Assembly (NCBI GenBank): GCA_963819215.1 | Contig: CAWFVK010000001.1 | Location: 114,671-178,670 of the forward strand | Reading direction: 5' to 3' | Length of the DNA stretch: 64,000 bases | Source of the DNA: an uncultured Actinomycetota bacterium | GTDB taxonomy: Bacteria > Actinomycetota > Actinomycetes > Prado026 | Shown: positions 37,646 through 61,035 of the stretch, piece by piece | How positions within the stretch are numbered: position 1 is the first letter of the stretch | How the letters are laid out: each line of letters opens with the position of its first letter | The notes under the pieces: generated by a model | Database searches by the model: none | Told to the model about the DNA's origin: nothing | The model's input: only the letters and a program-made list of their open reading frames with translations | Program-made: the position numbers and the translations under genes

Positions 37646-37663
37646 CCTCAGATCTCGAAGAGC

Positions 37664-37694
37664 TTGACCCTCCCGTAAGGGAAGGCAGCACCGT
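37664..37694 (+). promoter_or_regulatory. MerR-type promoter with 19-bp spacer and dyad
   Basis: TTGACC (37664-37669), 19 nt, CACCGT (37689-37694); imperfect dyad CCCTCCC-gtaa-GGGAAGG. Confidence 0.72.
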
Positions 37695-37731
37695 GGAGCA
37701 GGTCAGCGACCATCGACGAAAGGTTGGCCCC

Positions 37732-38091: not shown

Positions 38092-38123
38092 GCCGCAGCC
38101 AGGCCGAGAGGAGAGCCACGGCG

Positions 38124-38945: not shown

Positions 38946-39025
38946 CCCGACACCGCATGTATTTCTCAAGCGATCGAATCCTCGTCCTAGGCAACGAGAT
39001 CACGCCATCGCTCAGAGGAGATCCC

Positions 39026-39463: not shown

Positions 39464-39515
39464 CGGAGGCCGTCGCGGCTGGGTGCACGCCCGCGGGCGG
39501 CTCCGCCGAACAGGG

Positions 39516-39899: not shown

Positions 39900-40141
39900 C
39901 GCGTGAACGGGTCGGCGAGGGTTCCGTCGATCGCATCGCGATCCCGCGCCCAGTCCTCATCGACTGCCCCGCGGAACAGCTCGGCGATGTCCGCAGCACG
40001 ACGCCAGCGGTTGCGGCGCACCGGACCCAGCTCAGCGACCTCACGGCCCGAGACGGTCACGGTGATGGTCTCGCCCGCCTCGGCTTGCCGCACCAATTCA
40101 CTCGCTTGCTGCCGCAGCTCTCGCAATCCGGTCGTCGTCAT
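39896..40141 (-). CDS. Phd/YefM family antitoxin
   Basis: GLRELRQQASELVRQAEAGETITVTVSGREVAEL; 4-nt overlap with the toxin. Confidence 0.92.
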   Translation of the reverse strand: MTTTGLRELRQQASELVRQAEAGETITVTVSGREVAELGPVRRNRWRRAADIAELFRGAVDEDWARDRDAIDGTLADPFTR

Positions 40142-40148
40142 GTGAGCC

Positions 40149-40166
40149 ACGCTAGCACATGTGCTA
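40149..40166 (-). promoter_or_regulatory. Toxin-antitoxin promoter: 14-bp palindrome overlapping the -10 box
   Basis: TAGCACATGTGCTA at 40153-40166; minus-strand TAGCGT at 40149-40154, 7 nt before the ATG. Confidence 0.72.
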
Positions 40167-40286
40167 CCCAAGAGAAAGAGCAGGCACCACCGCTCCAAGG
40201 CCCCGCCCCCCTCGCGTTGGAGCGGACTTGGAGCGGTCACGAAGACGATGAGCTCGTTGGTCGACCACTACCCGCGAGGAGGATCA

Positions 40287-43216: not shown

Positions 43217-46185
43217 TCAAGCACTCGGACGGGACGGACGCGCGGCCGGTCGAGCGGGCCGGCCGGCCTCGATATCGTCCGGAGGTGCGACTCTGCGACC
43301 TCGGCGCACTCTCGATCGACATCGACGGGCCACGAGCAGTCACCAGGCGGCAAGCGACCCGCTGCGGTCCTGGCCGTCCTGCTCGTCCACGCCAACCACC
43401 GGGTCTCCGTCGACGCCGTCGTCGACGCCGTGTGGGGCGATCGTGCGTCGGCCGGTTCGGCGTCGACGCTGGAGTCGCACGTGTGGCGGCTGCGGCGCGT
43501 CCTCGAACCCGACCGGCCGCCACGCGAACCGTCCAGCGTGCTGGTCAACCAGGCCGGCGGGTACCGACTGCTGGTCACACCCGAGCAGGTCGATTCGCTG
43601 CGCTTCGCCCAGCTCGCCGACGAGGTCGCCGACCTGATGACGACCGATCAACCCGAACGCGCGCTGCGCCGCTGTGACGAGGCGTTGCGCCTGTGGCGGG
43701 GGCGTCCGTACGGACCGCTCGGCCGACGAGCTGGGCCGCCGCGGCCGTCGCACGGCTGGAAGAGCAGCATCGCCAGATCCAGGAGCGCCGAATCGACGCC
43801 CTGCTGGCCACCGGGCAGGCCGAGCGGGCGCTCGCTGACGTCGAGGCGCTGATCCGCGAGATGCCGTACAACGAGCGCTGCGCGCCGCCAGCACATGCTG
43901 GCCCTCTACCGATGCGGACGGGCCGAGGACGCGCTCAACGCCTATCTCGCCGCCGGGCAGCCCTGCTCGACGAGGTCGGTATCGAGCCCGGCGCCGAGCT
44001 CCAGGACCTGCAGCGCCGGATACTCGAACAGGATCCGACCCTCGCGGCAGGACCACGCGAGCCCGCGCCCGTGCCAGCGTCGAGGTGCACCTCCCGGCGC
44101 GGACTTCAGAGCTACTCGGACGCGAGCGAGAACTGGCTGAGCTCAACCGGCTGCTGGCCGAACCAGCGGTTGATCACGCTGGTCGGACCGGCCGGCGCGG
44201 GAAAGACCCGTCTGGGGCTCGAGGCCGCGGCTGGCTCGGCGGCGTCTGTTTCGGGACGGGGTCTGGTTCGCCGACCTTGCCGCGATCGCCGACCCGGTGC
44301 TGATCGTCGCGACCGTGATGTCGATGATCGGACTGCAGCCACCGCCGGTCGGCAGCTCGCTCGACGCGCTGACCGCTCATCTGCACGGGCGGGCCGCGCT
44401 GCTCGTGCTGGACAACTGCGAACACCTCATGCCGCAGATCAGCGCAGGTGGCGTCCACGCTGGCCGGCGGCGACGGCGAGGTCTCGATCATGGCGACCAG
44501 CCGAGAGCCACTCGGGCTGGCCGGTGAGCGGATCGTCAGTGTTGAACCGCTTGCGCTCGAGCGGCCCGATGGGACGACTGAGTCCTCGCCCGCGATCGAG
44601 TTGTTCCTTCGGCGCGTCCAGGACGCCGCCCCGGCGCGGCTGGCGTCGTTGTCTCCCGAGGCGGCACGCGAGCTGGCGGCCCAGATCTGTACGGCCGTTG
44701 ACGGGTTGCCGCTTGCGATCGAGCTCGCTGCTGCCCGGGCGCAGGCGTACTCGCTGGCCGAGATCGCCGAGCAGGTGCAAGCCGACCCGAGCCGCCTTTC
44801 TCGTCCGGCCGGCGGGCCGGCGAACGCGGCAGCTCGTTGCGCGCCGCCCTGGACTGGAGCGAGCGCCTCCTCAGCGAGCCGGAGCGCCAGCTGCACCGTA
44901 ATCTCACGCGTGCTTCCCGGACCGTTCACCGCCGCCGCGGCTGCCGGTGTCTCGGATCCCTCGGACTGGAACGATCGAGACATCGAGCCGCCGATCTCAT
45001 TCCGCTGCTTGTCGAACGGTCGCTGCTGGTCGCCGCTGCCACCGATCCGACCGGACGGGCCTTCGCTGTTCCGCCAGCTCGCGACCGTTCGGGCGCACGC
45101 GATGCGCGGATTGGTTGACGCTGACGACGTAACGCGCCAACAAGATCGGCGCCGCGCCTGGGTACTGGCCCGGACCGATCGTGGGCCGGCGTTCGGATCG
45201 TTCGCGGAAGCGGGCTGGTTCAACGCGATCGACGATGACCTCGCCGCGGTCCGCGGAGTTCTCGAGGACGAGTTCCGTCCGCGCCATCAACCATCCGGCC
45301 CACTGGCCGACGACGTCGTCCGCGGCCGGTGTCGTCATCACCAGTCGGCTGCTCGACTACTGGTACTACCGATCACAGACGGCCGACGCCGCCGGGTGGC
45401 TCGACCTGGTGACGCAGGCATTGCGGCAAGGCCTGCTGATCGCCCGGGTGGACGAACTGCTTGCACTGGCTGCGATCGCGTCGATTCGCGCGCTGCAGGG
45501 ACGGACCGATCTGGCCACACCGTTCATCGACCGTGCGCTCGCGATGGTGGGCGACGTGCCAGCGAGCCGGCGCCTGGAGGTCGGCCACGCCCTCGGGCGG
45601 CTGGCCTCGGCCGTGTGGTCGACCGACGATCTTGAACTTCTCGGACGAATCCATCGAGCCATGGCGACGCTCGCCGACGACGCCGGTGACGACGGCCTCG
45701 CGGTCTTCAGCGATGCCATCGACTGCCTGCTGGCCATGCCGAGCACGGCCCCCGAAGCCACCGAGCGGCGCGCCACCGACCTCTACGCCCGAGCGATGCG
45801 GTCGATCACGCCTTCGCGGCCTGGACCGCCGCCGGCGCCTGCAGCGTGGCGGCAATACAGCAGGGGCGGCCCAGCCGAAGGCCTGCAGTGGACCGACCGA
45901 ATCATCGACATTCATTGGCGGCTCGGTACGCGGCGTGGTGGCTGGTACCTCGAGACCCGAGCCAACCTGACCTCGCTGGCCGGGAACTACGAGCAGGCCG
46001 CGGCATTGTTCGCCGCCGCCCGGGCGCACAACAAGCGTGGCGGCATCGCGTGGCCCCGGCGTGATTTCACCACGGATCTGCAGAACCGCACAGCCGAAGC
46101 GTTGGGTGAGGAGCGGTTCGCCCGGGCGTGGCGTCGCGGCGAGCAATGGTCGTTGGCGGACGTCCGGCAGGCAGGCCTCACGTGA
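43213..46185 (+). CDS. AfsR/SARP family regulator (wHTH-BTAD-ATPase-helical; frameshifted)
   Basis: LESHVWRLRR, ALRLWRG, MLALYRCGR, GIEPGAELQ, Walker A GPAGAGKT, LVLDNCEH, DGLPLAIELAAA. Confidence 0.85.
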
Positions 46186-46900
46186 GGTCCCCCGCGCGTG
46201 GATCCTGTTGCATGGCACGCCGCTGGACCCTGGCGTCTGGACCGACGTCGTGCCGTTCCTCAGCGAACACCAGCCGGTGCACGCGCCCGACGTGACGCCA
46301 CGCGCCGCCGATCGCCTTCCCCAGCTGGCCATCGCTGAACGTCTGGTGGGCGAGCTGGCCGCCGTCGCCGATCGATGGGACGTGGTCGGTCATTCGTTCG
46401 GCGGTCAGATCGCCATCGAGCTGGCGCTCCTCGCGCCAGAACGCGTCGCCACGCTCGCCGTTATCTGCAGCCGAGACACCCCCTTCCCACCGTTCGCTCA
46501 GACGGCCACCGAACTGCGTGCGGGGGTTCCCGTCGACGTCGATGGTGCGCTGGCGCGGTGGTTCCGTCCGGATGAGCGGCAGTCAAGCGATGGTCTGGTC
46601 ACGCATGCCCGCCAGTGTTTGATGCACGCCGATCGTGCGACCTGGGCCGCCGCCTTGGACGGAATAGCGAGCTATGACCGCGCCGAGCTCATGGGTCGGA
46701 TCCAGGTACCCACGCTTTTGATCTGCGCCGCGCTCGACACGGTGTCCGCTCCGGCGGCGATGACCGCACTCGCTCAACGCCTGCCGAATTCCGATCTGCA
46801 GGTCCTCCCGGACGCCGCCCACCTCTCGCCCCTTCTGCATCCGAGATCTCTTGCCGACCGACTCACCCGTCATCAAACGAGCAGGCCGACAACCCAGTGA
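46182..46900 (+). CDS. Alpha/beta hydrolase (PcaD-like fold)
   Basis: LLHG, nucleophile GHSFGG, PTLLI...D, AAH. Confidence 0.85.
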
Positions 46901-46913
46901 CAACAGACTCGTT

Positions 46914-47219
46914 CTAACTCGTCGGCCGGGCCGGATAGCTTCCGACCACCGTGGCGTCGGCCGCGTCGGTCCTTCGATGCACCGCTCGGCTATACCTGCC
47001 TGGAAGGCCGCGAAGGCTGCTGACCGCGCGAGCGGGTTGTCGTCGGAGTCGTAGGTCACGACGTGGATGAAGTCCTGGCCGTCGCCAGGCGCAGGACGGC
47101 GTACCGAAAGCCTTCGGGTCGGTCCTCCGCCAGCTCCGCGAAGACCGCGCGGATGAGGCTTCGTTCTCCTCTGCCGCGTCGGGCGCCGTGGTGTACCGGA
47201 TGACCTTGGTCGTGGACAT
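46914..47219 (-). CDS. Small hypothetical protein (ABM-like; frameshifted)
   Basis: VIRYTT...AVFAELA...GFRYAV...FIHV...AFAAFQAGI across frames; AGGAG RBS. Confidence 0.6.
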   Translation of the reverse strand: MSTTKVIRYTTAPDAAEENEASSARSSRSWRRTDPKAFGTPSCAWRRPGLHPRRDLRLRRQPARAVSSLRGLPGRYSRAVHRRTDAADATVVGSYPARPTS

Positions 47220-47256
47220 GGCGGTCTTCTCCTCGGTCGCAGACGTGCGGGTAGGG

Positions 47257-47666
47257 CTAGCTCTGCGAATGGCACGCATGCTGTTGTTGCGGGCGTCATG
47301 GGTGAGCTCGGCCAGGCCGAGCTCCTCCAGCAGCGGCGGGAGGTACATGCCGAAGCGGCCGCGATATCCGTTGCGAAGGCCGTACCAGCCACCGACAGGG
47401 TTGTCCGGTGAGCGGCCCCAGCTCTCCACGGTTCCATCGGCGGCCGGCTTCTTCTCGTCGGCCGCGCCGAGCGGAACCCAGTCGCCCTGTTCCAGCAGCC
47501 AGGCGTGCAGATCGTCGATGGCTCGCAGCTGGTATTTCAGCGTGGTCGACCCGACCTGGCACACCAGCGTCGGCGGCTCCGCGCTCTCGTCCCGGTACAT
47601 CGTGTAGCTCGACGAGCCCGGTGGGGTTGTGAGCTCCCACGGGTCTTCCTTGTGCCCTTCGGCCAT
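47257..47666 (-). CDS. DUF6855-type conserved protein
   Basis: DPWELTTPPG, CQVGST, WGRSPDNPVGGWYGLR.GYRGRFGMY, NNSMRA. Confidence 0.72.
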
Positions 47667-48145
47667 CAGACTGATCTCCCTTCGAGACTGCTGCGCGGTA
47701 ATGCGGGAGCACCGCATCCCAGCCGGCGCGGTTGCGTCACGCCATGGGTCGCCGGACGCGTCGATGCGCTGCCAGCCGCCGGTGCTCGATCTCGACCCGG
47801 GTCCGGCTCGGACCCTGTTCGGAGAACCGGATGTCCACGTCGGTGGCGTCGACCGGGTCGCGCATCAGGTGCCAGCGGTAGCCCAGCCGGTGGGGCGGTT
47901 CCCACGCCGTGACCTCGCCCCAGGCATGTTCGGTCGCCCTCGGCGGTCCGCTCGAAGATCCGGCCGCCGCTGTCGCGGTTCGATCACGATCTGTGCATCC
48001 GGCTCGTCCGCTGACCGTGTGATCGGACGGCCACCAGCTGCTCGTCCGCGAGGTCCAGACCGCGAAGGCGTGGTCGACGGGGCATTCGACGTCAAAGGCC
48101 ATAGGTCAACGGCGCGACCGGCCTCGGCCCGCTCGTCGCGGTCAC
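47666..48145 (-). CDS. SRPBCC/AHSA1 domain protein (frameshifted)
   Basis: HAFAVWT..SWWP, WGEVTAWEPPHRL, TRVEIEH, GW. Confidence 0.8.
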
Positions 48146-48491
48146 TCCCCTGCCGCCTTGGTGTTCTCGGCGAGCAGCGTGAACCGTGCTGCCGCATCGC
48201 CCCAGACGCTTTCCAGGTAGAGCGCGAATCGCTTGCAGCCCCTGCTCTTGCAGGTGGTAGATCCGGCGGGTGCCGTCGGCGTGCTCGTCGACCAAGCCCG
48301 CGTCCTTCAGCAGGCGCAGGTGCCGGGACACCGCCGGCCGGCTGATCGGCATGCCGGCTGCGATCTCCGTCACCGGCAGGTCGCCCGCACTGAGCAGGCG
48401 CAGGATCTCCCGGCGATTCGGGTCGCCGAGCGCCTCGAAGGGATCGCCGGCGGCTGCGCCGTCGCTGACAGCGCGGAGGCGCGTCGGCCAT
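48142..48491 (-). CDS. ArsR/SmtB family regulator (frameshifted)
   Basis: FEALGDPNRREIL, ISRPAVSRHLRLLKDAGLV, GTRRIY. Confidence 0.85.
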
Positions 48492-48508
48492 GCGAACCTC
48501 CCAGACTC

Positions 48509-48542
48509 GGTAACCGTCTCGTTACCGTAACAGATGAGTTAC
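48509..48542. promoter_or_regulatory. Two adjacent GTAAC-N6-GTTAC palindromes (probable ArsR operator)
   Basis: GGTAACcgtctcGTTACC (48509-48526) and GTAACagatgaGTTAC (48527-48542) just upstream of the ArsR start. Confidence 0.72.
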
Positions 48543-48559
48543 CCATGCCGAGATCCACA

Positions 48560-49145
48560 TCCAGCTGGGCACGGCGGGTCCCAAGGCCTACCGGCAGATC
48601 GCTCGCCGTGGAATGTCAACGACGAGAGCAGGCCTACAGGTCGGACCCGGATCAGTGGGAGCAAGTGCGGCTGGAGATCGAGGACCTCGTCAACGGCGTC
48701 TGCAACCAAGAGCGGTTTCTCCAGATCCAGCAGGACTTCGTCGCCTTCGACCAGGGCGCGGACGGCTACGCCAAGCGGATCGCCAGGCCGCACCAGTACT
48801 TCGCTGTCACCAAGGCGTTCGGCTCGACGGTGCTCGCCGTCGAGTCCAACGGTAAGGCCGGGGTCGTGTGGCACACCCAGGGTTCCGGCAAGTCGATGGA
48901 GATGGAGCTCTACGCTCACGCCGTTGCTCGGCAGCCGAAGCTGAAGGACCCGACGCTCGTGGTCAGTCACCGACCGCACCGAGCTCGACAGTCAGCTCTT
49001 CGAGGCGTTCAACCGGTCGCAACTGAAGACGACCTCGACGCCGCCGCTGACGAAGCGGTGACCGGTCTCGACCAGGTCCAGCGTGGGCGCATCGGGGCCG
49101 AGTACACCGTGTCCGACCAGGCCAACAAGCCAGTCGGATTCGGTA
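48560..49145 (+). pseudogene. hsdR: Type I restriction endonuclease subunit R remnant
   Basis: HQYFAV, GVVWHTQGSGKS, PTLVVVTDRTELDSQLF; only ~190 codons, no start, no hsdM/S. Confidence 0.82.
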
Positions 49146-49161
49146 TAGCTCGAGCGTGTTT

Positions 49162-50349
49162 TCATCCTCGACGACCGGCCCGTGCTGCGAAGTCGTCAAG
49201 CGCGTCGAGCACCTCCCGGGACTGCCACATCCGGTTGCGGGCGAAGCCGGTGAACTCCTCCAGGATGTCCGCCTCCGCGAGTGGCGTGATGGCGCGCAGC
49301 GCGTTTTGAGGGGTGACGCCGAGTTCGCGCGCCACAGTCGGTGTGTCGATGACTGGCTGGCGAAGCAGGACGTCGGCCAGCTGCCAGGCCGTCGCTCCTC
49401 GCCGGGCCTTGATCTTGTCGTCCCAACCTTGCCGGATCTCTCTGAGGTCGAGCACCAGCTGGCGACCGTTGGCCGCCGCCGCGAAGGACGCGTTCGCCAG
49501 CTTCTCGACGATCGGGGCGGGGTCGCCCTCGCGGTACGCGGTCAAGGCGTCGAAGTACCCGTTGGTGTCAGTCAGCAGGCCGGCTGACACGGGCACCGTG
49601 ACGTTCCTGGTCAGCCCGTGACCGCGCAGCATCGCGTGGATGAGCGCCCGGCCGGTGCGGCCGTTCCCGTCCGGGAAGGGATGGATGGTCTCGAACTGGG
49701 CATGAGCGATCGCGGCCTGGCTGAGCAACGGCAGGTCCGCGCGCCGGGTGAACTTGACCAGGTCAGCCATCAGGGCAGGCACGTGGTCGTGATGAGGCGG
49801 GATGAACGCGGCTCCGTGCGGTCCGAACGAGTCGCCGCCGATCCACACCTGTTCCTCGCGCCAGCGGCCGGCGATCTCGGGCTGGACATCCGCCAGCAGG
49901 GCCGCATGCATGGCCAGGATGGCGTCTTCATCGAGACGGTCGGCGAGGGCGAGCGCGGCGACCATGGCCGCGACGTTGCCGACGATCTCCGTTGCGTTGC
50001 GTTTGTCCTTGCTTCCAAGCTCGGCCAGCGCGATCGACTTCGCACCCGACGTCAGGTTCTCGATCTTGGAGGACGATGCCGACTCCGACCGCAGCAACAC
50101 CGAGGCGAACGGAGCGACCTCAGCACCCAACTCCGCGTCGAACCGGGCGATCTCGACCGACGCATCTTCGGCGAGCGTCGCGACGTCAGCCGGCAGCGTA
50201 AGCACCTGGTCAGCGATCTCCGGGACGAGGGCCGCCCGGTACGGGCCAGAATGCCGCTGGCGGACCCGCGCCGACACCAGGTCCGGCGAGATCTTCGATT
50301 GCCAGGCCCGCTCTTCCGTGCCGAGAGCCGGCCACGACCCTGAAACCAT
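49162..50349 (-). CDS. Fic family protein with internal inhibitory motif and C-terminal wHTH
   Basis: HPFPDGNGRTGR; SSKIEN matches (S/T)xxxE(G/N). Confidence 0.93.
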   Translation of the reverse strand: MVSGSWPALGTEERAWQSKISPDLVSARVRQRHSGPYRAALVPEIADQVLTLPADVATLAEDASVEIARFDAELGAEVAPFASVLLRSESASSSKIENLTSGAKSIALAELGSKDKRNATEIVGNVAAMVAALALADRLDEDAILAMHAALLADVQPEIAGRWREEQVWIGGDSFGPHGAAFIPPHHDHVPALMADLVKFTRRADLPLLSQAAIAHAQFETIHPFPDGNGRTGRALIHAMLRGHGLTRNVTVPVSAGLLTDTNGYFDALTAYREGDPAPIVEKLANASFAAAANGRQLVLDLREIRQGWDDKIKARRGATAWQLADVLLRQPVIDTPTVARELGVTPQNALRAITPLAEADILEEFTGFARNRMWQSREVLDALDDFAARAGRRG

Positions 50350-50398
50350 GCCGCAATCATACGCTCAGAAGATAGCTAAATGAAACTATGGGCACACT

Positions 50399-51213
50399 CT
50401 AAGTCCGAGTTGTGGTCCGACCGGCGGGGGAGACCCCCACACTGCCAGGGCGATAGGCCACCACAGCGGTTGCGTGGAGCTCCTCGTCCGTGACCACCTC
50501 AGCGAGCAAGCCCGCCTGCTCGAAGATCCGCACCGTCTCGCCGGACTGACGTTCGCTCGTCTCGATGAGCAGCAGGCCGTCCGGACGCAAGCCAGTCCAG
50601 GGCGTCCGCTGCCACCCGGCGATGGAAGTCCAGCCCGTCCGGACCGCCATCGAGGGCCACCCGGTGCTCGTGGTCGCGAGCCTCGGGCGGCATCAGCGCG
50701 ATCGCTTCGGTCGGGACGTACGGCGCATTCACCACCAGCAGGTCCACTCGCCCGCGAAGCGACAACGGCAGGGCGGCGTACAGGTCGCCCTCGTAGACCG
50801 AGCCGCCCACCGGTTCGACGTTGCGGCGAGCGCAGTGCACCGCCGCCGGGTCCACATCCGCGGCATGCAGCTCGACGTGCTCCAAGCGGCGAGCCAGCGC
50901 GACGCCGATCGCTCCCGATCCGCAGCAGAGATCGACCACGACGACGGCGGCTGGCCGTCGCGCAACGGCCAGCCGACACGAGAAGCTCGCTGCGACGCCG
51001 AGGCACGAACACCCCCGGCTCCACGAAGATCCGCAGACCGCAGAACTCGGCCCAGCCAAGGATCTGCTCCAGCGGTAGCCCGCCCACACGCTGATCGACC
51101 ATCGACTCGAGCAGAGCCGGCGAGTCCGCACCGTCGATCAGCAGCCGAGCCTCGTCCTCGGCGAACACGCATCCAGCCAGCCGAAGCCGCCGAACGATCG
51201 CTTCCTCGTCCAC
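50399..51213 (-). CDS. PrmC/HemK-like SAM-dependent methyltransferase (frameshifted)
   Basis: LRLAGCVFAEDEA, PLEQILGW, VFVPRRRS, DLCCGSGA, NAPYV, ALDGGPDGL. Confidence 0.85.
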
Positions 51214-51224
51214 GCACGGGCCCG

Positions 51225-53480
51225 CTAGCGCCGGGACTGCGACGACCGAGCGGCTTCCGCGGCCTCCGCCGGACCGCGATGCCCGGCGCGCACGTGGTGG
51301 TGGCCCGAACTCGAGCAGCAGCATGGTCGACGAGGATCCACAACGCCTCGACCGGCTTGAGCACGACGAAGCGCTGCGCGTCGAAGGCGTGGTACTTCCG
51401 CAGGTACCGGTGGAGGCCCTTGAGGTCGATGAACGGGCGCAGCAACCAGACGCCCGCGAGCGAGAACCGATCACCGAGCGATCCGTCGCCGACGCGCAAA
51501 CAGCTCCGGAAACGGCGCGAAGGCCAACGACACGCGCCGGCCGCCTCGCTCCCGGGCCCAGTCGACCACCGCGAGCATCATCAGTTCCTCGGTCCCGTTC
51601 GGGGCGGAGCGCCCGCGCCAAGGGACATCGAGCGAGAGCTCGCGCCCCTGGTCTGCTGACGCGAAACGCGCGACCGCGACCACCGCACCTGCGCGGTCCG
51701 TCGCCACGGCGACCAGCGTGCCCGGGTGGGTGGCGTCCAGCGGATGGTCGAGGATCATCGAGAAGCCACGCGCCGCCTTGATCGAGCCCGCGAACGCCAT
51801 CAGCCGGTCGCGCTCCGGCCCGGCGAGGTCCTGCTCCAGCACGACCGCCACCTGAACCCCGGCGTTCCGAGCCCGTTGCGCAGCCTGGCGAAGGTTCCGG
51901 TACTGCCGCCCCACCAGCTCCAGCTCGTCGACGTGCAGCACGACGTCGCGCCCGATCGGCACCGCGCGCAGACCGAACCGGCGCCAGCGCTGCGGGTGGG
52001 CCGTCCCTAGCCCGGCGACCCGGAAACCCTGACCGAGCGACGTCCTGACGAACGCCTCCAGCGCCGCCGCCGCCTGCGTCGGGTCACCGACTGGGTCACC
52101 GGCAACCACCGCCGTGCCGAGCCCGACCCGGTAGGCGACCGCGGCCCCGCCGTCCGGGCTGAACGCGTAGCTGAGGTCGGTGCGCTGGCTGAACGGCGCC
52201 AGCGGATCGGTGGATGTCTGCATGACGAGCTCCGACACCGCGGCACGCTCGTGCGCCGAGCCGGGAGCCGGAGCCGGCGGCGGCAGCACGAGCACCAGCC
52301 CGGCCAGTGCCAGGTTGAGCCAGACCCACGACCCGGCGCCCACCCAGACCTCGACGCCGCCCAGGACCAGCAGCACCACCGCCAGCGCTAAGCGACGCGA
52401 CAGAATCCGCCGACGCAGAGCGAGCCCGCGGGCCACAAACGCAAGACCCACCACGAGCCCGGCCCCCGCGATGGTGCGCACGCCCACCGACGAGCTGAGC
52501 GTCACCAGCAGCCAGACCACTGACCCGAGCACGAGCACCCAGCCCGCTGCGGCCAGCGGGCGTCGCACCGGCAGCAGGCGCGGGACCGCCGCGACGTGCG
52601 CGGCATAGTCCGGCCGCCGCACGAGGTTGCGCTCCTCCATCAACGGGATGCTCGCCGCGACGAACAGCAGCACCATCACGAGCGGGCCGATCACCGTCCA
52701 CCACCAGGATGGCGCGGCTGCAAGGCCGAACAGCCAGAGCCCCCACCAGAAGGTGATCTCGCCGAGGTAGTTGGGGTGCCGGGACCACGACCACACCCCG
52801 GTCGCGAGGGTCGAGCCGTGGTTCGCCGGATCGGCGGCGAAGGCCCGGCGCTGGTGGTCCGCGAGGCTCTCCAGCGCGACCCCACCGAACGTGACCAACG
52901 CCGCCACGGCGTCGAGCGGGCCCAGCGAGTGCCTCGGCGCACCGAGCGCAGGCCAGAGTGACAGCATCGCCACGAAGACCACGAGCGTCGGCATGAGCTG
53001 GATGCCACCCAGGTTCACCACCCACCAGGGCACCCGGCCGGCCGTCTTTTCGCGCAGGTCGCGGTAGCGCCAGTCCTCGTGGCTCATCCCCTGCCAGCCG
53101 AGCGCCCAGTTGCTGGTCAGCCGCACGCCCCACCACAGCACCAGCAGGACGACGACGCCCTGGCGGACTCGCGCGCCGTCAAGGTCGGGAACCGGGTCCG
53201 CGAGCACGAGGAACACCGCGACGACCGGCGGCACCACGCTCCAGTACGGGTCGTACAGGCTGGAGTTCCCGACCACCATGGAGAGCGCGAACACCACGAG
53301 CGTTGCGGCGAGGTCGGCGGCGAGCACCCCGGTGAGCCGAGCATGGTCGTGCACCCGGAGCAGGGCCACCCCGGCGCCAGCGGCGGCGAGCAGGTAGCAG
53401 CCGGCCACTGCGACGAACGAGGCCGACCGGGAGAGATGTGCGAACGCCCGCCCGGTGTCGAGTGCATCGTGACCCTCCAC
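51225..53480 (-). CDS. Fusion of a DUF1295 membrane domain and a LysX/MprF-like (DUF2156) aminoacyltransferase domain; 3' frameshifts
   Basis: N-half YDPYWS, HEDWRY, LADHQ, WSWSRHPNYLGEITFWW; C-half TDPLAPF..RTD..YAF, AVVAGDPVG, RNLRQA, RGFSM, APNG, SLAFAPF, LHRYLRKY. Confidence 0.75.
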
Positions 53481-53570
53481 AGCCTCCACCGTACCGAGCG
53501 GATCACTGAACGAGCACTGGGGTTTGGCCCGTCGGGACGAGGGGCGACGCGACGGCGCAGGCAGGTACGG

Positions 53571-54404
53571 CTAGCCCTCGCCTGGCGGGATCGTCACGGT
53601 GAGGGTGGCGCGCTTCTGCGCCGCCGACGAACCGGTGCGCGCCGCCCAGCTCTTCGCCCCGCGCATCCAGGCAGGCAGCCCGGCGGGCAGGTCACCCTCG
53701 GGGATCGCGCCGTGCTCGGCCGCAGTGATGCCGTCGCCGTAGTGGACGAGCGGGGTCGGGACGTCCGGGGTGAGCACACCGGGGCCAGGCGCGGTGATGA
53801 GGTCGAGCCCCTTGTTCCAGCTCTCGCACAGCCGTTTCATCGCCGCCGCGAAGGTGGTCTGCCCGCTCGCGCTCGCGGAGTCCGGATAGGTCGGATGGAG
53901 CACGTTGGCGTACCGCCAGGGTGCCGGCGCCGTCCCGGGGACAGCCCGCCAGGCCTGGTAGGTCTCGTCGGCGAGGGTCCCCAGCGAGACCACGACCTGC
54001 AGCGGGTTGTCGGCGGCGATCGCGTCGAACCAGGCGAACCGGTCAGCCAGGATCAGCGGGTCCTTGTGGTGCTTGGTCCCTCCGCTCTGGCCGTACACCG
54101 AGTAGAGGAACGTGTTGACGAACACGTACGACGTCGTCATGCCCAGCTTGTCGAGGAAGCCCTGGATCCGTTGCCCAGCCTCGCCGACGAGGACCCGGCG
54201 GGCGACGTCCTCGTGCGTCGCAGGGTCCTGGCCGATGACCAGGATCCGAGCCGTGCCGTCGAGGCGCCCCCGATGGAAGATCGGGCCCCACTCGGTGCGG
54301 AACGCCGCAGGCGGGTAGGCGTCCTCGCCGGGATAGCCCTCGACCAGTGCCCGGTACGGAGCGCGGTCGTAGCCGGGGCAGAACGGGTGCGACGGAGCAG
54401 TCAT
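53571..54404 (-). CDS. Uracil-DNA glycosylase superfamily protein
   Basis: ILVIGQDP, LVGEAGQR, VNT, VVSLG, HPT. Confidence 0.82.
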   Translation of the reverse strand: MTAPSHPFCPGYDRAPYRALVEGYPGEDAYPPAAFRTEWGPIFHRGRLDGTARILVIGQDPATHEDVARRVLVGEAGQRIQGFLDKLGMTTSYVFVNTFLYSVYGQSGGTKHHKDPLILADRFAWFDAIAADNPLQVVVSLGTLADETYQAWRAVPGTAPAPWRYANVLHPTYPDSASASGQTTFAAAMKRLCESWNKGLDLITAPGPGVLTPDVPTPLVHYGDGITAAEHGAIPEGDLPAGLPAWMRGAKSWAARTGSSAAQKRATLTVTIPPGEG

Positions 54405-54442
54405 CGGGGCGCCGTCCTTTCAAGGGTGAGCAGCTGGCAGGG

Positions 54443-56040
54443 CTAGGCCGGCTTGAGCGCGAGCAGTCCGGCCCGGACGTCGGGCGGCAGGTTCACCTCG
54501 GTGCCGAGGGTGTCGTAGTAGTGCGGGTTGTCGACCGCGGTGAGGGGGTCGAGGGTGAGCGCCGGCAGGTTCGGCGGCGGTCCCGCCAGAGCCGGTGGAG
54601 CGGTGGGGTCCTGGTAGTTCGGGCCCGTCACCTCGCCGTGGAAGGGCAGGTGCGGTCGCGAGGACATGTGGTTGTCGACGAGCCCGTCCACCGCCAGTCG
54701 CAGGTGGCGGGCCGGCAACGCGGTGACCTTCGCGGTCGGCAGGTCGTGCAGCGCCTGGGTGAGCACCGAGCGCGCCTGCGCGAGGGACATCGCTGCCACC
54801 GTCGGGTCGGCCGTCGGCTCGACGAGGTTCAGGACGTGCTGGTGCCCGCCCACGGTGACCTTCTCCGGGTGGGCGGCGGCGGCCGTGAGCCCGAGCGATC
54901 GCATCAGCTTCGAGCTCCCCACCCGCGGCACGCCCTGGATCGCGACCAGGTCCAGATCTGCCTCCGTCGCCTCCAGCAGCGCGGCATAGGGGTCAGTGGT
55001 GGTTCCGTGCACCACCACGAAGTCGGCGCGGTAGCCGGCCTGCAGCCGACCGATCTGGCTCCCCCACCCCAGCATGGCCGCCGGCGTGCTGGTCACCATC
55101 GCGACCAGGTCAGCGCTCGACAGGTCGAGCTGCTGCACCTCGACGACGAGCCGTGCCACCTTCAGCTCGCCGAGCAGGTTCTTGCTCCCCGACGGAGCCC
55201 AGTCCGAGCCGAGCGCCACCGGCACCTGGTGGGCGAGCGCCGCCCCGACGTCGGCGGTCTGCCCGTACAGCAGGAGGTTCGACAGCGGCGACCAGACCAT
55301 GCTGCCGCCGTGCGCGGCCAGGACACCGAAGTCCGCGTCCGTCAGCGCCACGCAGTGGATGCCGATCAGGTTGTCGGTGATCGCCCACGTCCCCGGGTGG
55401 ACCTGCAACGCGGCGAAGTGCTTCGCCGCGGAGTCGTCGGTGCCCTCGGCGAGGTGCAGGATCAGCTTCTTGTCGCCCGAGACGCGTTCGAGGAACTTCT
55501 CGGCGTCGGTCGCCTCGACGTCCGCGATGTGCGTGAGCGCCGCCGGGAGCTTCGGGTCGCCGGTGGACTCGACGTTGCGGACCAGGCCGCGGAAGTGGCT
55601 GACGATGCTCGGGCTGTTGGCGAGCGTGATGCCCTGGCTCGTGGTGGTGCCGCCGAGCAGGCAGCGCGTCTCGGCGAACCGCACCACCGCAGCGGCGACC
55701 TCCGGTTGCGAGCCGAGCACCTGCATCGGACCGGTGATCAACCTGCGGTAGTCGGGGTTGCCCGGGCCGCTCCACTGGTCCCGGTTGCCGTAGACGTGCG
55801 GCACCTGCCACAGCGAGAGGACGTCATACGGGAGATGGTTGTGGAGCTCGACGAGCCCGGGGAAGATCGTGCCGCCGGTGGCGTGACCGTGACGTCCTCG
55901 AAGCCCGCCGGAGCCGGGTCGGTGCGCGGGCGGACGTCGACGACCAAGCCGTCCTCGACGTAGAGGACGGCGTCGTCCAGCACCGTGCGGTGGTCGTCCA
56001 TCGTCACGATGCGTCCAGCCAGTGCCAGGCTCCCGCTCAC
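54443..56040 (-). CDS. Metal-dependent amidohydrolase, deaminase-type (one frameshift near 55880)
   Basis: IFPGLVELHNH, GGTTT, HLAEG, GIHC, WSPLSN, LGSD, GRLQAGYRADF. Confidence 0.85.
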
Positions 56041-56094
56041 CTCGACCAGAGTGGCACCAGCGCCGGCAGATACAAGGCCTAGCTCGGCTGCTGC

Positions 56095-57375
56095 CTAGAG
56101 CGGCTGCAGCAGCTCGCGGCCCCCGAGGTACGGGCGCAGCGCCGGCGGAACCTGCACCGAGCCGTCAGCCTGCTGGTGGTTCTCGAGCAGGCGACGATCG
56201 TCCGCGTCATCGCGCACAGCGTGCCGTTGAGCGGTGGCGACCGGCGCGACGCCGTCGTCGGTGCGCCAGCGGATGGCGAGCCGCCGGGACTGGAACTCGG
56301 TGCAGTTCGACGTCGAGGTGAGCTCGCGGTAGCGCGCCCTGCGTCGGGAACCACGCCTCGCAGTCGAACTTGCGCGCGGCGCTGACGAGCCGAGGTCGCC
56401 GGTCGCGACGTCGAGCACCTGGAACGGCAGCTCGAGCTTGTCGAGGAACTCCTTCTCCCAGCCGAGCAGCCGCGGGTGCTCGGCCTCGGCGTCCTCGGGC
56501 GGCAGTACGAGAACATCTCGACCTTGTCGAACCAGTGCACCCGGATGATGCCCTCGGGTGTCCTTGCCGTAGCGAGCCGGCCTCGCGCCGGAAGCAGGGC
56601 GAGAAGCCGGCGTAGCGGCGCGGCAGCGAGGCGGCGTCGAGGATCTCGTCCATGTGGTACGCCGCGAGCGGGACCTCGGCCGTGCCGACGAGGTAGAGGT
56701 CGTCGTCCTCCAGCCGGTAGACTCTCGGCGGCGTGGCCGAGGAAGCCGGTGCCCTCCATCGCCTCCGGCTTGACCAGCGCCGGCGGCGATGACCGGCGTG
56801 AAGCCGGCCTCGACCGCCTGGCTGATCGCGAGGTTGACCAGCGCGAGCTCCAGCAGCGCGCCGACGCCGGTGAGGAAGTAGAAGCGCGAGCCGGAGACCT
56901 TCGCGCCGCGCTCGAGGTCGATGGCGCCGAGCGCCGTGCCGAGCTCGACGTGGTCGCGCGGGGTGAAGCCCTCGGCCGCGAAGTCGCGCGGCGTGCCGAC
57001 GTGGGTCGATGACGACGGTAGTCGTCCTCGCCGCCGACCGGGGCGTCCGGGTGCGACCAGGTTGCGAGAGCTTGAGCAGCAGCTGCGACGCCTCCGCGGC
57101 GGCCTCGTCCCGCTCGGCCTCGGCCTCGCGTGACGGCGGCCTCGAGCTCCTTGGCCCGCGTCGAGCAGCGCGGTCTTCTCCTCGCCCTTCGCGGCAGCGA
57201 CCTGCTTGCCGAGGGCCTTCTGCTCGCCGCGCAACGTCTCGAAGGCGACGCCGACGAGCCGGCGGCGTTCGTCGGCGGCGACCAGCGCGTCGACCAGCGA
57301 CTCGTCCTCACCGCGGGCGCGCTGCGAGGCACGGACGAGGTCGGGGTTCTCGCGGACGGCGCGGAGGTCGATCAC
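56095..57375 (-). CDS. serS: Serine--tRNA ligase (multiple indels)
   Basis: [65 protein letters not shown]. Confidence 0.95.
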
Positions 57376-57432
57376 GTCGTCACCCTACCGGCGCCCGGAA
57401 CGGCCAGAGCGGCGGTTCAGCTGGGCCGCGAC

Positions 57433-58421
57433 TCAGACCCGGCCGTCACGGATGCGCGCGAGCCAGGCCTGGCCCTCGCTGTACTCGCCGTCGGACACCC
57501 CGCGCCGCAGCGCCGGCCGGACCTGGTCGACCCGGGGGTAGGAGCCGAGGTACCGGACCTCGGCGCAGATCCGGTGCAGGCCGATGAGCGCCTCGCCGAC
57601 CCTGGCCTCGTCGACGTGGCCCTCGGCGTCGATCGAGAAGAAGTAGTCGACCCATGCCCGCCGCCGGTCGGCCGCGACTCGATCCGGGTGAGGTTGACGC
57701 CGCGCACCGCGAACTCGGTGAGGATCTCGAGCAGCGCGCCGGGGTGGTCGTCGCTCGATGACGAGCACGAGCGAGGTCTTGTCGGAGCCGGTGACGGGCT
57801 CCGGGACGACCGGGCTTCGAGACCAGCACGAACCGGGTCTGCGCGCCCACGACGTCGTGCACGCCGTCGGCGAGGACCTCCAGCCCGTAGCACGTCCGCG
57901 GCGAACGCACCCGCCAGCGCGGCGTCGTACTCGACCCTCCGCGACCAGCCGCGCGCCGTCGGCGTTGGACGCCGCCGGCATCCACTGCGCCTGCCGGCAG
58001 GTTCGCGGCGCAGCCAGTTGCGGCACTGCGGCTGCGGCGTGCGGGATGGTCGACGACCGTCCGGACCTCGGGCAGCGTCGTGCCCGGCCGGGCGAGCAGC
58101 GCGAACGACACCGAGAGCAACGTCTCGCGGACGACTACAGCGGGTCGCCGAAGGCGAGCCCGTCCAGCACCGCGGTGACCGAGCCCTCGACCGAGTTCTC
58201 CAGGGCGACCATCCCGCGCGACTGCCGCGCCGTCCCTGACCGCGGCGAGCACGGCCTCGACGCTCGCGAAGGGCAGGAGCGGTGGCGCCGTCCAGCCGGC
58301 CGGTCTCGCGCAGGCAGGACACCAGCGCGGCCTCGGTGAACGTGCCCTCCGGGCCGAGGTAGGCGTAGCCGCGGCTGGCGTCGTCCAGCTGGTCGGGCTC
58401 GGTCGCGGGCGGCTCGCTCAT
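57433..58421 (-). CDS. pheA: Prephenate dehydratase (multiple indels)
   Basis: YLGPEGTFTE, ENSVEG, AQTRFVLV, DHPGALLEIL, NLTRIESRP, LGSYP. Confidence 0.92.
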
Positions 58422-59027
58422 GCCTGCTCCGACGGCTCGCGGCTCTGCGGTCCGGCCGTCGAGCGACTGCTCGTCCGGCTGCTGCGCACCCGCCTTGCCT
58501 GCCGGCTTGCGGGCCGCACGCGGGGTGACGACCGTGGGCGGGTTCCCCCGCAGCGCCCAGCCGACGACCTGCTCCTCCTCGGGCGAGAGCTGGGCCTCCG
58601 ACGAGCCGCTCTTGATCCCCTTGGCGTAGGTCCGCGTCTCGCTGCGACCGTTGATCGAGCTGAAGACCAGGCCGTCGCCGGCGTCGTCGAGCAGCGCGGC
58701 CGAGAACGAGAGCCGCCCGCCCATGTCGCCGAACGCGTCGTAGCGCACGACCGCGACGTGCCGGATCGCGTCGGCGAGGTCCGTGCGGACCTGGTCGACG
58801 CCAGTGGACAGCGAGCCGACCTCGGCCCTGAGCTCCGCGACGCGCTCCTGGGTGCGTGCGGCGGCATCGACGAACGAGCCCTTGGTGCCGTCTCCCTGCA
58901 GGACGGAGTAGAGCCGGCGCATGCGGCCGAGCCGGATCGTGGCGACCAGTGCGAGGAGCAAGCCGAGCACGCCCACCGCAGCCCCCGCGACTGCGACGAT
59001 GCTCGTGACGGACGGGTCGAGCGACAC
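58418..59027 (-). CDS. DUF4446 family membrane-anchored protein
   Basis: N-terminal TM, VVRYDAFGDMGGRLSFSAALLD, RTYAK, LSPEE. Confidence 0.85.
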
Positions 59028-59092
59028 GGTGCTCCTGGCTGGACCAAAACGCGGACGGGTTCGATGAAGGGTAGCCCGCTAGGGTCCGACTC

Positions 59093-59852
59093 ATGACGCA
59101 GGAGACGCCGGGGGTCGTTGACCTGGGATACGCCCGGCTGGACGTCCAGCGTGCCGACCGCACCGGCGACCCCGAGGTCGTGCTCGGCACCGGCAAGACT
59201 CCCGAGCAGGTCGTCGAGCTGCTCACCCGGCTGCACGCGGCCCACCCCGACCGAGCCGTGCTGGCGACCAGGCTCGAGCCGGCGGCGCTGCAGGCCGTCG
59301 AGGCCAGCTGCCCCGGGGCCGTGCTCGACCGGCCGGCACGGGCAGCCGCCTGGGGACCGCTGCCGGCCGCGTCCGGCCTCGTCCGCGTCGTCGCCGCGGG
59401 GACCTCGGACGGCCCGGTCGCGGCGGAGGCCGCGTTCACCGCGCGCGTCTTCGGCGCGGGGGTGGCCCGGATCGACGACGTCGGGGTGGCGGGCATCCAT
59501 CGCCTGCTGGCCGTCCAGGCCGAGCTCGATGACGCGGACTGCCTGATCGTGGTCGCCGGGATGGAGGGCGCGCTGCCCTCGGTCGTCGGCGGTCTCACCG
59601 GGGTGCCCGTCGTGGCGGTGCCCACCTCGCGTCGGCTACGGCGCATCGTTCGACGGGCTGGCCGCGCTGCTCGCCATGCTCAACTCCTGCGCGCCCGGGA
59701 TCGTCGTGACCAACATCGACAACGGCTTCGGGGCTGGCGTGTTCGCTGCCAGGGTGGCCCGGCGGGCGGCTCCCCGACCGGCGTCCGGCCCTGCTTCCCG
59801 ACCCGCTCACTCAGCTGCTCGAGGCTCGGCCGACGAGCGGGCGACGTCGTGA
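59093..59852 (+). CDS. larB: Nickel-pincer cofactor biosynthesis protein LarB (one frameshift)
   Basis: [59 protein letters not shown]. Confidence 0.92.
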
Positions 59853-61035
59853 CGGCTGCCTGGTTCCAGTGCGCCGCGGGCGCGAGCGGGGACATGCTCC
59901 TCGGGGCGCTGCTGGACGTCGGTGCCTCGCTCACGGCCGTCCAGGGTGCTGTCGATGCGGTGGGCGTGGATCCCGTCCGCATCTCGGTCCACCCGGTCGA
60001 GCGGCACGGCGTCGGCGCGAGCAAGGCAGAGGTCGAGGCTCCGCCCTCCGACGTCCTTCGCACCTGGGCGGACGTGCGCGAGCTGCTCGAGCGCGCGCCG
60101 CTCGCCGAGCCCGTCCGGACGCGCGCGCTCGACGTGTTCGCTCGCCTCGCGAGGGCCGAGGGTGCCGTCCACCGGGTCCCCGCGGACGAGGTGCACTTCC
60201 ACGAGGTCGGGGCGCTCGACGCCATCGCTGACGTCGTCGGGGTGAGCGCTGCCTTGGTCGACCTCGGCATCGACGACGTGACGTGCTCGGCGGTGGCGCT
60301 GGGCTCCGGGCTGACCCGCTCCTCGCACGGCGTGCTCGTCGTGCCGGCGCCCGCCGTCGTGGCCATCCTGGCCGAGGCGGGCGCACCGGTGTACTCCGGC
60401 GCCGAGGAGGTCGAGCTCTGCACGCCGACGGGGGCCGCCGTCCTCGCCTCGGTGACCGGCGCCTGGGGTGGCCTCCCGCTCGGCCGGCTGCTGCGGTCCG
60501 GCTACGGCGCTGGCACCCGCGAGCTCGAAGGAGTCCCGAACCTGCTGCGGGTGGTGCTGCTCGAGCGCGTCAGCCCGGCGACGAGGCAGCGCCCACCGAG
60601 CTCGTGATCGAGGCGAACGTCGACGACCTCGACCCTCGGCTCTGGCCGGCGGTGCTCGCCCGGCTGCTCGCCGCCGGTGCGGCAGACGCGTGGCTCGCAC
60701 CGGTCCTGATGAAGAAGGGCCGGCCGGCCCAGGTGCTCTCCGTGCTGGTCGAGCCCGCGCTCGCCGACGTCGTGCGGCGGGTGGTCTTCACCGAGACCTC
60801 GACCCTCGGCGTGCGCGAGCACCTCGTGGACAAGCGTGCCCTCGAGCGTGGGTTCGTGACCGTGCAGGTCGACGGGCATGCTGTACGGGTGAAGACGGCA
60901 CGGTTCGAGGGCGCGGTGGTGAACGTCCAGCCCGAGTACGAGGACGTCATGGCCGTGGCCGAGGACACCGGGCGTCCGGTGAAGGCCGTGCTCGCCGCGG
61001 CGGCCGCAGCCGCGCACGGCCTCGGGATCGGATGA
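59849..61035 (+). CDS. larC: Nickel-pincer cofactor biosynthesis protein LarC (frame break at the C1/C2 boundary)
   Basis: [36 protein letters not shown]; then [25 protein letters not shown]. Confidence 0.92.

Follow-up and report, generated by a model that had tools for sequence, protein, structure and literature searches.

What a DNA glycosylase does in the company of a deaminase-type hydrolase is the question raised by a locus of an uncultured Actinomycetota bacterium. In a stretch of 64,000 nucleotides (contig CAWFVK010000001.1 of GenBank assembly GCA_963819215.1; hereafter the window, with a G+C content of ~71%), a gene for a zinc amidohydrolase of the deaminase type is followed by a gene for a protein of the uracil-DNA glycosylase (UDG) fold. 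A preliminary description of the window had presented the two as a candidate new system for the processing of modified bases, and the features from which it started are present: the genes are co-oriented, lie 38 nt apart with an AAGGA ribosome-binding site before the second and adjoin the seryl-tRNA synthetase gene serS, and the HxH, HxxE, H and D motifs of the amidohydrolase as well as the GQDP and HPT motifs of its partner were all found (Table 1). Comparison with related loci establishes, with little room for doubt, that the glycosylase and the amidohydrolase are an obligate functional pair: they lie side by side in several orientations, show translational coupling, are inherited together and have fused repeatedly. 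The window locus is the minimal two-gene form of a conserved, horizontally mobile two-enzyme module.

Adjacency, co-inheritance and fusion of the two genes

The association of the two families was followed in a set of loci with ten phylum labels, for which a family-profile search confirmed at least 515 stretches and the best 80 were analysed; adjacency was counted on these 80 by BLAST with six amidohydrolase queries. The amidohydrolase was found in 71 of the 80 glycosylase loci. The two genes lie no more than 600 bp apart in 65, the amidohydrolase being downstream and co-oriented in 38 (six of them overlapping), divergent in 21 and upstream and co-oriented, as in the window, in six, while six further loci hold it at a distance of 654-2266 bp. 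Six of the nine loci without a neighbouring copy belong to genomes that carry the gene elsewhere, in one case ~9 kb away, and no amidohydrolase was found anywhere in the remaining three genomes, one of which is a metagenome-assembled genome of 1.6 Mb. A higher count of 74 of 80, obtained by clustering open reading frames, was not used; its loci L016, L017 and L021 rest on unconfirmed transitive links.

Co-inheritance was also seen in whole genomes. In 401 genomes sampled evenly from the phylum and searched at E values up to 1e-20, the UDG type was found in 16 and the amidohydrolase in 18, neither being present in 383, and every one of the 16 UDG-positive genomes also held the amidohydrolase; of the two with an amidohydrolase alone, one proved in a profile search to carry a UDG variant, bringing the overlap to 17 of 18. 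A UDG close to that of the window was found in seven genomes (~2%) and a more distant type in nine. One close relative, G002, has the genes in divergent orientation and an amidohydrolase of a short subtype. Genomes G039, G034, G025 and G017, which are unpublished, entered a tally of weak matches alone, and none of the conclusions draws on them. In a Bradyrhizobium record, a UDG ~90% identical to the crystallised protein of the family (BdiUng, described below) has an amidohydrolase gene directly downstream, the start of which overlaps the UDG stop by 4 nt, so that the published enzyme's own lineage has the partner.

Fusion of the two proteins has occurred in both orders, with seven UDG-then-amidohydrolase fusions and one in the reverse order among the best 150 representatives, and a search for long proteins returned 53 relatives, 41 of which carry amidohydrolase Pfam domains. 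Both active sites are invariant across 35 aligned fusions, and helix-hairpin-helix (HhH) DNA-binding domains are fused to some UDG copies. When a natural fusion of 833 aa was modelled with AF2 from 35 homologues, the single domains were confidently predicted, but the pTM of the whole was 0.60 and the linker, residues 272-301, was disordered. The proteins are 50-60% identical across phyla, and the distance matrices of UDG and amidohydrolase correlate (Mantel r = 0.52 over 66 pairs, a value reached by 0 of 999 permutations), a correlation to which shared ancestry contributes and for which it alone could suffice. The link between the two families on which the preliminary description rested, and for which it had proposed co-occurrence across genomes as a check, has thus been found in their neighbourhoods, their phyletic distribution and their fusions.

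The two enzymes and their known relatives

Judged by its sequence, the GQDP protein is a member of the published and crystallised BdiUng family and no new type of UDG. BdiUng is Blr0248 of Bradyrhizobium diazoefficiens (PDB 5GN2, 5GN3, 5GNW and 5GRK; Chembazhi et al. 2017, NAR, PMC5449639), and in a phmmer search of PDB sequences the window glycosylase matched chain A of 5GN2 with an E value of 4.1e-86 over nearly its whole length (residues 8-275 of the query and 5-269 of the chain), the next matches being family 4 and UdgX enzymes at E values of 1e-3 or worse. It is 55% identical to a Bradyrhizobium orthologue and reaches 28.5 bits with the Pfam UDG model (cut-off 24.3). The published enzyme dimerises by means of its N- and C-terminal extensions, has GQDPA for motif A and carries an extended protrusion where motif B would be; D57, which activates the water, and H168 are catalytic, N94 contacts uracil, and A59, a small residue where family 1 has Tyr, widens the pocket, which is enlarged around uracil C5 and accepts a purine (PMC5449639). 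All four residues have counterparts in the window protein, namely D60, H170, N97 (in VNTF) and A62. The Q, D and P of GQDP and N97 are invariant in two family alignments (A1 and A3), and H170 is fully conserved in A3 and almost so in A1. The stretch HPTYPDSASASG aligns to BdiUng residues 168-178, the extended polar protrusion in the place of motif B, and KRATLTVTIP, an instance of the family pattern KRxT(I/L)xVTIP, aligns to the C-terminal hairpin that would act as a dimerisation element. The preliminary description had noted that the long N- and C-terminal extensions of the partner are unlike UNG; they correspond to the dimerisation elements of the BdiUng family. The two proteins differ in one pocket residue, M92 of BdiUng being F95 in the window, in a column that varies between M, L, F and I across the family, and in that excision has been shown for Blr0248, while the window protein is assigned through its similarity.

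Other UDG families were considered and set aside. Family 1 (Ung) would have Tyr for the Ala in GQDPY and HPSPLS where the window protein has HPTYPD, and no entry so named occurs among the 32 PDB matches at E values up to 10. NCBIfam places the glycosylase nearest to UdgX and family 4, well under the cut-offs (26.6 bits against 189.95 for TIGR03914 and 21.2 against 125.3 for TIGR00758), and the four Cys of those families are absent. As there are just two Cys (C9 and C193) in 277 aa, and thus no set for a 4Fe-4S cluster, no Fe-S cluster is expected; BdiUng likewise has no such set. The family is large, numbering 3212 clusters when grouped at 90% identity and, when grouped at 50%, 732 representatives with E values up to 0.001. 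Because the close type is patchy, being present in ~2% of the sampled genomes, and because genome G000 encodes three further UDG-superfamily genes, the gene is placed outside the housekeeping uracil glycosylases.

The biochemistry of BdiUng bears directly on what the pair may do. In vitro the enzyme excises uracil, 5-hydroxymethyluracil and xanthine, mainly from single-stranded DNA, with pNUNN as the minimal substrate; hypoxanthine was not excised, nor was thymine in the sole context tried, a G:T pair in double-stranded DNA (PMC5449639). The assays used ~32 pmol of enzyme for ~0.1 pmol of substrate, a ~320-fold excess of enzyme (PMC5449639). BdiUng is insensitive to Ugi and is not inhibited by DNA containing abasic (AP) sites, and it did not rescue an E. 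coli ung mutant (PMC5449639).

The amidohydrolase, which gives 75 bits with Pfam Amidohydro_1 and is 66% and 63% identical to its orthologues in the related genomes G011 and G016 (the latter intact), belongs by sequence comparison and modelling to the nucleobase/nucleoside-deaminase, TRZ/ATZ-like group, with a predicted mononuclear metal site whose ligands and catalytic Glu are conserved. The preliminary description had placed it among the nucleobase or nucleoside deaminases, and sequence and structural matches agree. The closest NCBIfam models are guanine deaminase, the best at 66.8 bits (cut-off 375.4), the TRZ/ATZ hydrolases and 8-oxoguanine deaminase (52.8 against 532), all well under their cut-offs; cytosine deaminase gives 25.1 (403) and the deaminase of 5-methylthioadenosine/S-adenosylhomocysteine (MTA/SAH) 18.6 (779). 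The family has 3469 matches, which automatic annotation calls 'MTA/SAH deaminase' or 'cytosine/adenosine deaminase-related hydrolase'. Across 25 diverse homologues, all five metal ligands (H77, H79, H206, H240 and D291) are invariant and the Glu of HxxE is nearly so, locus L086 being the exception, and a long insert after the HxH strand is conserved (W88, W100, Y108, R131, TTSQG and RNVE). A shorter subtype of ~470 aa clearly belongs here too, as hhalign aligns it over 386 columns at 35% identity with a probability of 100.

An AF2 model of the G016 orthologue (pLDDT 86.2, pTM 0.90) was compared with known structures by Foldseek and a second method, and the top matches were the MTA/adenosine deaminase homologues 4DYK, 4DZH, 4GBD and 4F0S (Z 28.4-28.5, root-mean-square deviation 2.7-2.9 over ~375 residues; the best with 28.5 and 2.7 over 377 residues), followed by 8-oxoguanine deaminase 3HPA (27.2), TM0936 (26.8), isocytosine deaminase Vcz (7WW2; 26.4), AtzA (26.2), TrzN (25.5) and E. 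coli guanine deaminase (25.0). AtzA (2.6e-23) and 4F0R (6.5e-22) also came up when a profile was run against PDB sequences, and the matches of a homologue in the ESM Atlas were confined to its own family. The window family thus shares with these deaminases and TRZ/ATZ hydrolases the (beta/alpha)8-barrel fold and the HxH, H(xxE), H and D site; unlike them it stays under all equivalog cut-offs, has the long insert and a C-terminal extension of ~100-170 residues outside every structural match, and is obligately paired with a DNA glycosylase.

The window locus, its surroundings and variant loci

The pair has the same gene order in the window as in its relatives G011 and G016, with serS 54 nt upstream of the amidohydrolase (Table 1). 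The preliminary description read across a frame break in the amidohydrolase gene without mentioning it: the interval 54443-56040 is 1598 nt long and indivisible by three, with codons 1-56 (56040-55873) and the other 474 (55867-54446) in separate frames. The break leaves the gene one base short relative to orthologues, within the conserved '...VTP-x-GGTI(F/Y)PGL(V/I)ELHNH' stretch upstream of HxH, and a tblastn search with the G011 orthologue passes from frame -2 (56028-55855) to frame -1 (55930-54446); the G011 and G016 orthologues run uninterrupted across the site. Because the assembly (19 contigs, 68% marker completeness) is indel-rich and serS next door shows at least 11 frame switches in 1.28 kb against the G011 SerS (local identity 70-97%), the break is probably an assembly indel error and not genuine. 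Pfam detects just the N-terminal domain of the window serS, and among public sequencing runs none covers positions 55500-56100 (best share 0.07). The region at 57417-59027 (DUF4446 and ACT, prephenate-dehydratase-like) also appears broken. Indel density is very uneven along the contig, the 2.4 kb of the pair having a single break in comparison with the neighbouring serS.

Table 1. Features of the glycosylase-amidohydrolase locus, of its surroundings in the window and of variant loci (coordinates without a locus prefix are those of the window)
Feature	Coordinates	Strand	Remarks
serS	56095-57375	-	Pfam Seryl_tRNA_N and SerS homology; upstream neighbour, co-oriented with the pair
Deaminase-type Zn amidohydrolase gene	54443-56040	-	Upstream member of the pair; ~532 aa if read through; stop 54443-54445
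UDG-fold glycosylase gene	53571-54404	-	277 aa, ATG start, intact; assigned to the BdiUng family
Intergenic spacer	54405-54442	-	38 nt; AAGGA at 54419-54415, 10 nt before the glycosylase ATG
HNH (HxH metal ligands)	55835-55843	-	Amidohydrolase H77 and H79, invariant in homologues and fusions
HLAE (HxxE)	55445-55456	-	Amidohydrolase; metal-ligand His and catalytic Glu typical of the deaminase subgroup
GIHC, third ligand His	55352-55363	-	Amidohydrolase H240, invariant in the alignment
GSDW, ligand Asp	55199-55210	-	Amidohydrolase D291, invariant in the alignment
GQDPA, motif A	54219-54233	-	Glycosylase residues 58-62
HPT, with catalytic His H170	53889-53897	-	Glycosylase; begins the family-specific protruding region replacing motif B
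Frame break in amidohydrolase	~55877-55881	-	Three-frame translation and tblastn with the G011 orthologue
trpB2-like gene	36075-37445		Window
PIN toxin	39516-39899		
SWI2_SNF2 fragment	48233-49309		
Fic	49162-50349		
Small methyltransferase	50499-51131		
Tandem UDG variants	L095:5741-7507, L096:6002-7822, L097:5519-7336, L098:5409-7472		Also P0163, P0174, P0238, P0259
Small Streptomyces protein	L024:4841-5149, L029:4263-5144, L039:4003-4884		Possible lineage-specific third component

In G011 the pair is immediately flanked by serS on one side and by a convergent trpB2-like gene on the other, and this backbone is common to the window, where ~16 kb (about 37500-53500) between the trpB2-like gene and the UDG gene are an insert relative to G011. 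The insert holds a PIN toxin, MerR regulators, an FAD oxidase, MFS and BTAD/TPR fragments, DUF6855 and AHSA1 proteins, an SWI2_SNF2 fragment, Fic, a small methyltransferase and a DUF1295 and LPG_synthase_C fusion. By this comparison of gene order the pair borders an accessory insert and is itself part of the serS-pair-trpB2 backbone, which refines the earlier placement of the pair at the edge of an accessory region: it does lie next to the insert, though not within it. Of the restriction-modification, Fic and toxin-antitoxin remnants reported for that region, Fic and the PIN toxin are present, and a complete restriction-modification system could not be confirmed, the insert offering just the SWI2_SNF2 fragment and the small methyltransferase. 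The DUF6855 protein of the window (46914-47717) has a counterpart at L017:2340-2756, ~4 kb from the UDG gene of that unrelated locus, which is probably coincidence.

The enrichment near defence genes that the preliminary description had anticipated was not seen for the minimal pair. PADLOC-DB 2.0 gave no family for P0001, P0002 or the G016 amidohydrolase at E values up to 0.01, PHROG gave no match for the pair, and 2.9 million viral contigs held no relative of it; an origin from phages was set aside on the last two results. In 131 flanking proteins from 33 loci the specific defence-type matches were one TIR, one caspase, one subtilase and one SduA-like fragment, and further matches, to ABC-type ATPases, a trypsin-like protease, an oxidoreductase, a desaturase, a CARF-labelled model and one helix-turn-helix, resembled cross-hits. 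With only scattered defence-type matches, the flanks of the pair are not defence islands. Rfam gave no match, and hence no riboswitch, in window positions 50000-60000 at E values up to 1, and 11 related loci yielded two tRNAs only.

In a number of other loci the pair is joined by third partners, above all peptidases, which in one form or another occur in 26 of the 80 loci, about a third. An S41-like domain is fused to the amidohydrolase or follows it directly in 15 of the 80 loci, and additionally in L096, in a protein of 1190 aa. This S41 domain (C-terminal processing/CPAF-like, ~570 aa) is seen at L023:7828-11466, at L096:2419-5991 and in 14 further loci, and the amidohydrolase subtype linked to it has merely 33-48% identity to the other amidohydrolase queries. 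Caspase-family genes occur in 10 of the 80 loci and CHAT in six, P0160 is a fusion of caspase and UDG, and S8 subtilases flank the module in L044, L094, L095 and L097. The caspase beside the module is the sole caspase-domain gene of its genome in four of five genomes tested, one such caspase meets the NCBI 'EACC1-associated' model (163.5 bits against a cut-off of 140), and LCAT-like lipases, patatin and a TCAD7 domain are found in some of the caspase/CHAT clusters. Clusters with caspase, CHAT, lipase, patatin, TCAD7 or EACC1-type proteins extend over ~1-5 kb around the module in L058, L060, L071, L085 and L097. On a rapidly built tree of these 80 glycosylases, the S41 label and the caspase label must each change at least four times, at least two of these changes being forced by well-supported branches. 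Queries for S41, caspase, CHAT, S8 and LCAT had no match in the window (tblastn, E up to 1e-3).

The glycosylase itself varies as well. The more distant UDG type (588-690 aa, with long variants up to 877 aa) is a tandem duplication of the BdiUng domain that also adjoins an amidohydrolase; its first copy has GQEG for GQDP, the catalytic Asp being replaced by Glu, and its second has lost motif A and the Asn. From its domain arrangement it looks like a covalent pseudo-dimer of the dimeric enzyme. In a complete genome, locus L094 encodes an 812-aa UDG-amidohydrolase fusion (5886-8324) with ASDPG for GQDP, an S8 subtilase gene lying directly downstream and an adenylate/guanylate cyclase gene upstream. 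Locus L041, from Streptomyces, has a BdiUng-type gene in a genome with no amidohydrolase, its neighbours being an Endonuclease_NS protein and a caspase-WD40 protein (8684-10603 and 11143-13464). In several other Streptomyces loci the amidohydrolase is followed by a small conserved protein ('LVTQLA...QKQAIRDF.PLWQ') that belongs to no Pfam or NCBIfam family.

What the pair may do

The partnership is observed; the order of the two reactions, their substrate and their biological role are inferred. The account preferred here, put forward as a serious possibility that stops somewhat short of probable, is that both enzymes act in sequence on the same substrate, deamination preceding excision on single-stranded DNA. 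The amidohydrolase would exchange the exocyclic amino group, possibly N-substituted, of cytosine-, 5-hydroxymethylcytosine- or guanine-type residues in single-stranded DNA or oligonucleotides for an oxo group, giving uracil, 5-hydroxymethyluracil or xanthine, and the glycosylase would then cut the N-glycosidic bond, leaving an abasic site for downstream repair or degradation. This order is proposed because the three bases that BdiUng excises are the hydrolytic deamination products of C, 5-hydroxymethylcytosine and G, and hypoxanthine and thymine were not excised. The ~320-fold excess of enzyme and the failure to rescue E. coli ung suggest that pre-existing uracil is not the real substrate of BdiUng, and the weak activity of the enzyme on its own suggests that the assays lacked the reaction by which its substrate is produced. 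In a fused protein a mutagenic intermediate would be eliminated without delay, which is counted in favour of deamination coming before excision. As to the biological role, both the repair of adducts or damage and a regulated DNA-damaging effector are considered.

Several observations weigh against deamination followed by excision on DNA. We know of no amidohydrolase-fold enzyme that acts on bases within DNA, and the closest solved relatives of the amidohydrolase use free bases and nucleosides. The protein is acidic (median isoelectric point 5.96 and net charge -9 in 25 sequences), with no sign of general DNA binding, and the model of the fusion has no confidently fixed interface between the active sites. 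In the Gemmataceae locus L086 (7853-9439) HLCKG stands where the family has HL(A/S)EG, with Lys in the place of the presumed catalytic Glu. In the tandem forms, whose catalytic Asp is replaced or lost, excision may not be what matters, and without regulation a pair that deaminated and excised bases of its host's DNA would cause mutations or be toxic, yet the minimal pair has no evident regulator.

The reverse order is accordingly one of the alternatives to be weighed. The glycosylase might free an amino-bearing damaged or modified base with a uracil- or xanthine-like face, which the amidohydrolase would deaminate as a free base for detoxification or salvage, by analogy with 8-oxoguanine deaminase acting on excised 8-oxoguanine. 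The nearest structural and sequence relatives of the amidohydrolase, all users of free bases or nucleosides, and its acidity speak for such an order, as does the BdiUng pocket, which is enlarged around uracil C5 and takes a purine, so that the true substrate may be bulkier than those tried; weak activity in vitro on uracil, 5-hydroxymethyluracil and xanthine would fit surrogate substrates. These three bases, however, retain no amino group to remove, no candidate base has been identified, and strict co-occurrence, translational coupling and fusion in two orders exceed what a pathway with a diffusible product usually needs, all of which leaves excision before deamination a doubtful proposition, if one to be taken seriously. 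Far more improbable is the absence of any real partnership, in which the glycosylase would be a reserve enzyme for uracil repair and the amidohydrolase, its neighbour by chance, a metabolic deaminase unrelated to it, for instance for MTA/SAH. The source annotations do read '5-methylthioadenosine/S-adenosylhomocysteine deaminase', and the 2017 paper treats BdiUng as a stand-alone UDG (PMC5449639), but adjacency holds over three gene orders and ten phylum labels, co-occurrence is near-perfect, 41 clusters are fusions and the score with the curated MTA/SAH deaminase model is a small fraction of its cut-off.

A conflict or cell-suicide effector is a further alternative, in which a DNA-damaging or nucleotide-destroying module would be kept inactive and switched on by a peptidase (S41, caspase/CHAT or S8) in phage attack or programmed cell death, the window form being stripped down or differently regulated. 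Amidohydrolase-fold deaminases serve in the RADAR, Cad1 and Kongming defence systems, and the effector idea gains from this precedent as well as from the recurrence of peptidases as third partners (including the P0160 fusion), from the module-side caspases that are the only ones of their genomes and the EACC1-associated one among them, from the lipases, patatin and TCAD7 domain of the same clusters and from the patchy distribution and the mixing of phyla in the tree. Two thirds of the loci, the window included, nevertheless have no peptidase, and the PADLOC, PHROG, viral-contig and flanking-protein searches described above gave little or nothing; 50-60% identity across phyla is unusually high for defence genes, the window pair sits in a conserved backbone, and BdiUng has not been reported to be toxic in E. 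coli (PMC5449639). An effector of this kind is therefore judged unlikely. A more far-reaching form of the deaminate-then-excise account is more of a long shot, and draws on analogy. TRZ/ATZ enzymes displace alkylamines from triazines, and the amidohydrolase could in the same manner be the first enzyme of its fold to act on DNA-borne bases, displacing an exocyclic amine or an N-linked adduct from cytosine- or guanine-type residues and leaving uracil or xanthine for the glycosylase. Where an S41, caspase/CHAT or S8 peptidase is fused or adjacent, the three enzymes might together process crosslinks that join proteins or peptides to DNA through exocyclic amines, in that the protein would be trimmed, the peptide unhooked by displacement of the amine and the oxo-base excised.

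Deamination followed by cleavage of an N-glycosidic bond has eukaryotic parallels in AID/APOBEC with UNG on DNA and in DCTD with DNPH1 on 5-hydroxymethyl-dCMP. The proposed action of the pair resembles these in passing from amino to oxo group and then to N-glycosidic cleavage, with 5-hydroxymethyluracil among the bases concerned; AID/APOBEC and DCTD differ in having the cytidine-deaminase fold, and their partners are neither encoded together with them nor fused to them. DNPH1, moreover, lacks the UDG fold and acts on mononucleotides. BdiUng, in contrast, needs at least pNUNN (PMC5449639). The deaminases of the anti-phage systems RADAR (RdrB), Cad1 and Kongming have the amidohydrolase fold. They are metal-dependent adenosine deaminases that act on nucleotides as immune effectors or signal generators; they belong to an ADA-like subfamily, their partners are ATPases, CARF or SIR2 proteins and not a glycosylase, and the pair matches no PADLOC model.

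What is new here appears to be the partnership, the glycosylase being a further member of a published family. The paper on BdiUng describes the enzyme alone and mentions no amidohydrolase, deaminase, operon or fusion (PMC5449639), a review that mentions it lists BdiUng-like enzymes and says nothing further on them, and the passages searched of two papers on conflict systems mention neither UDG nor uracil nor amidohydrolase. No description of the glycosylase-amidohydrolase pairing was found in the openly searchable literature, subscription journals and supplements lying outside that search.

BdiUng was published as a new UDG family, and its weak activity and its failure to replace Ung left its role open. 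The near-constant presence of a deaminase-type partner turns that role into a testable problem of two enzymes, and one of some breadth, since the pair is present in thousands of sequence clusters, in dozens of which both enzymes form one protein; it also suggests that the assays of BdiUng to date lacked the partner enzyme and may have relied on surrogate substrates. Action of the hydrolase on bases still in DNA would make it a DNA deaminase of a new fold and open another way into base excision repair, or another means of DNA destruction, and the recurrent peptidases would in that case indicate either the repair of crosslinks or cell suicide gated by a protease. Were the released base its substrate instead, the pair would be a repair-plus-detoxification unit for some lesion.

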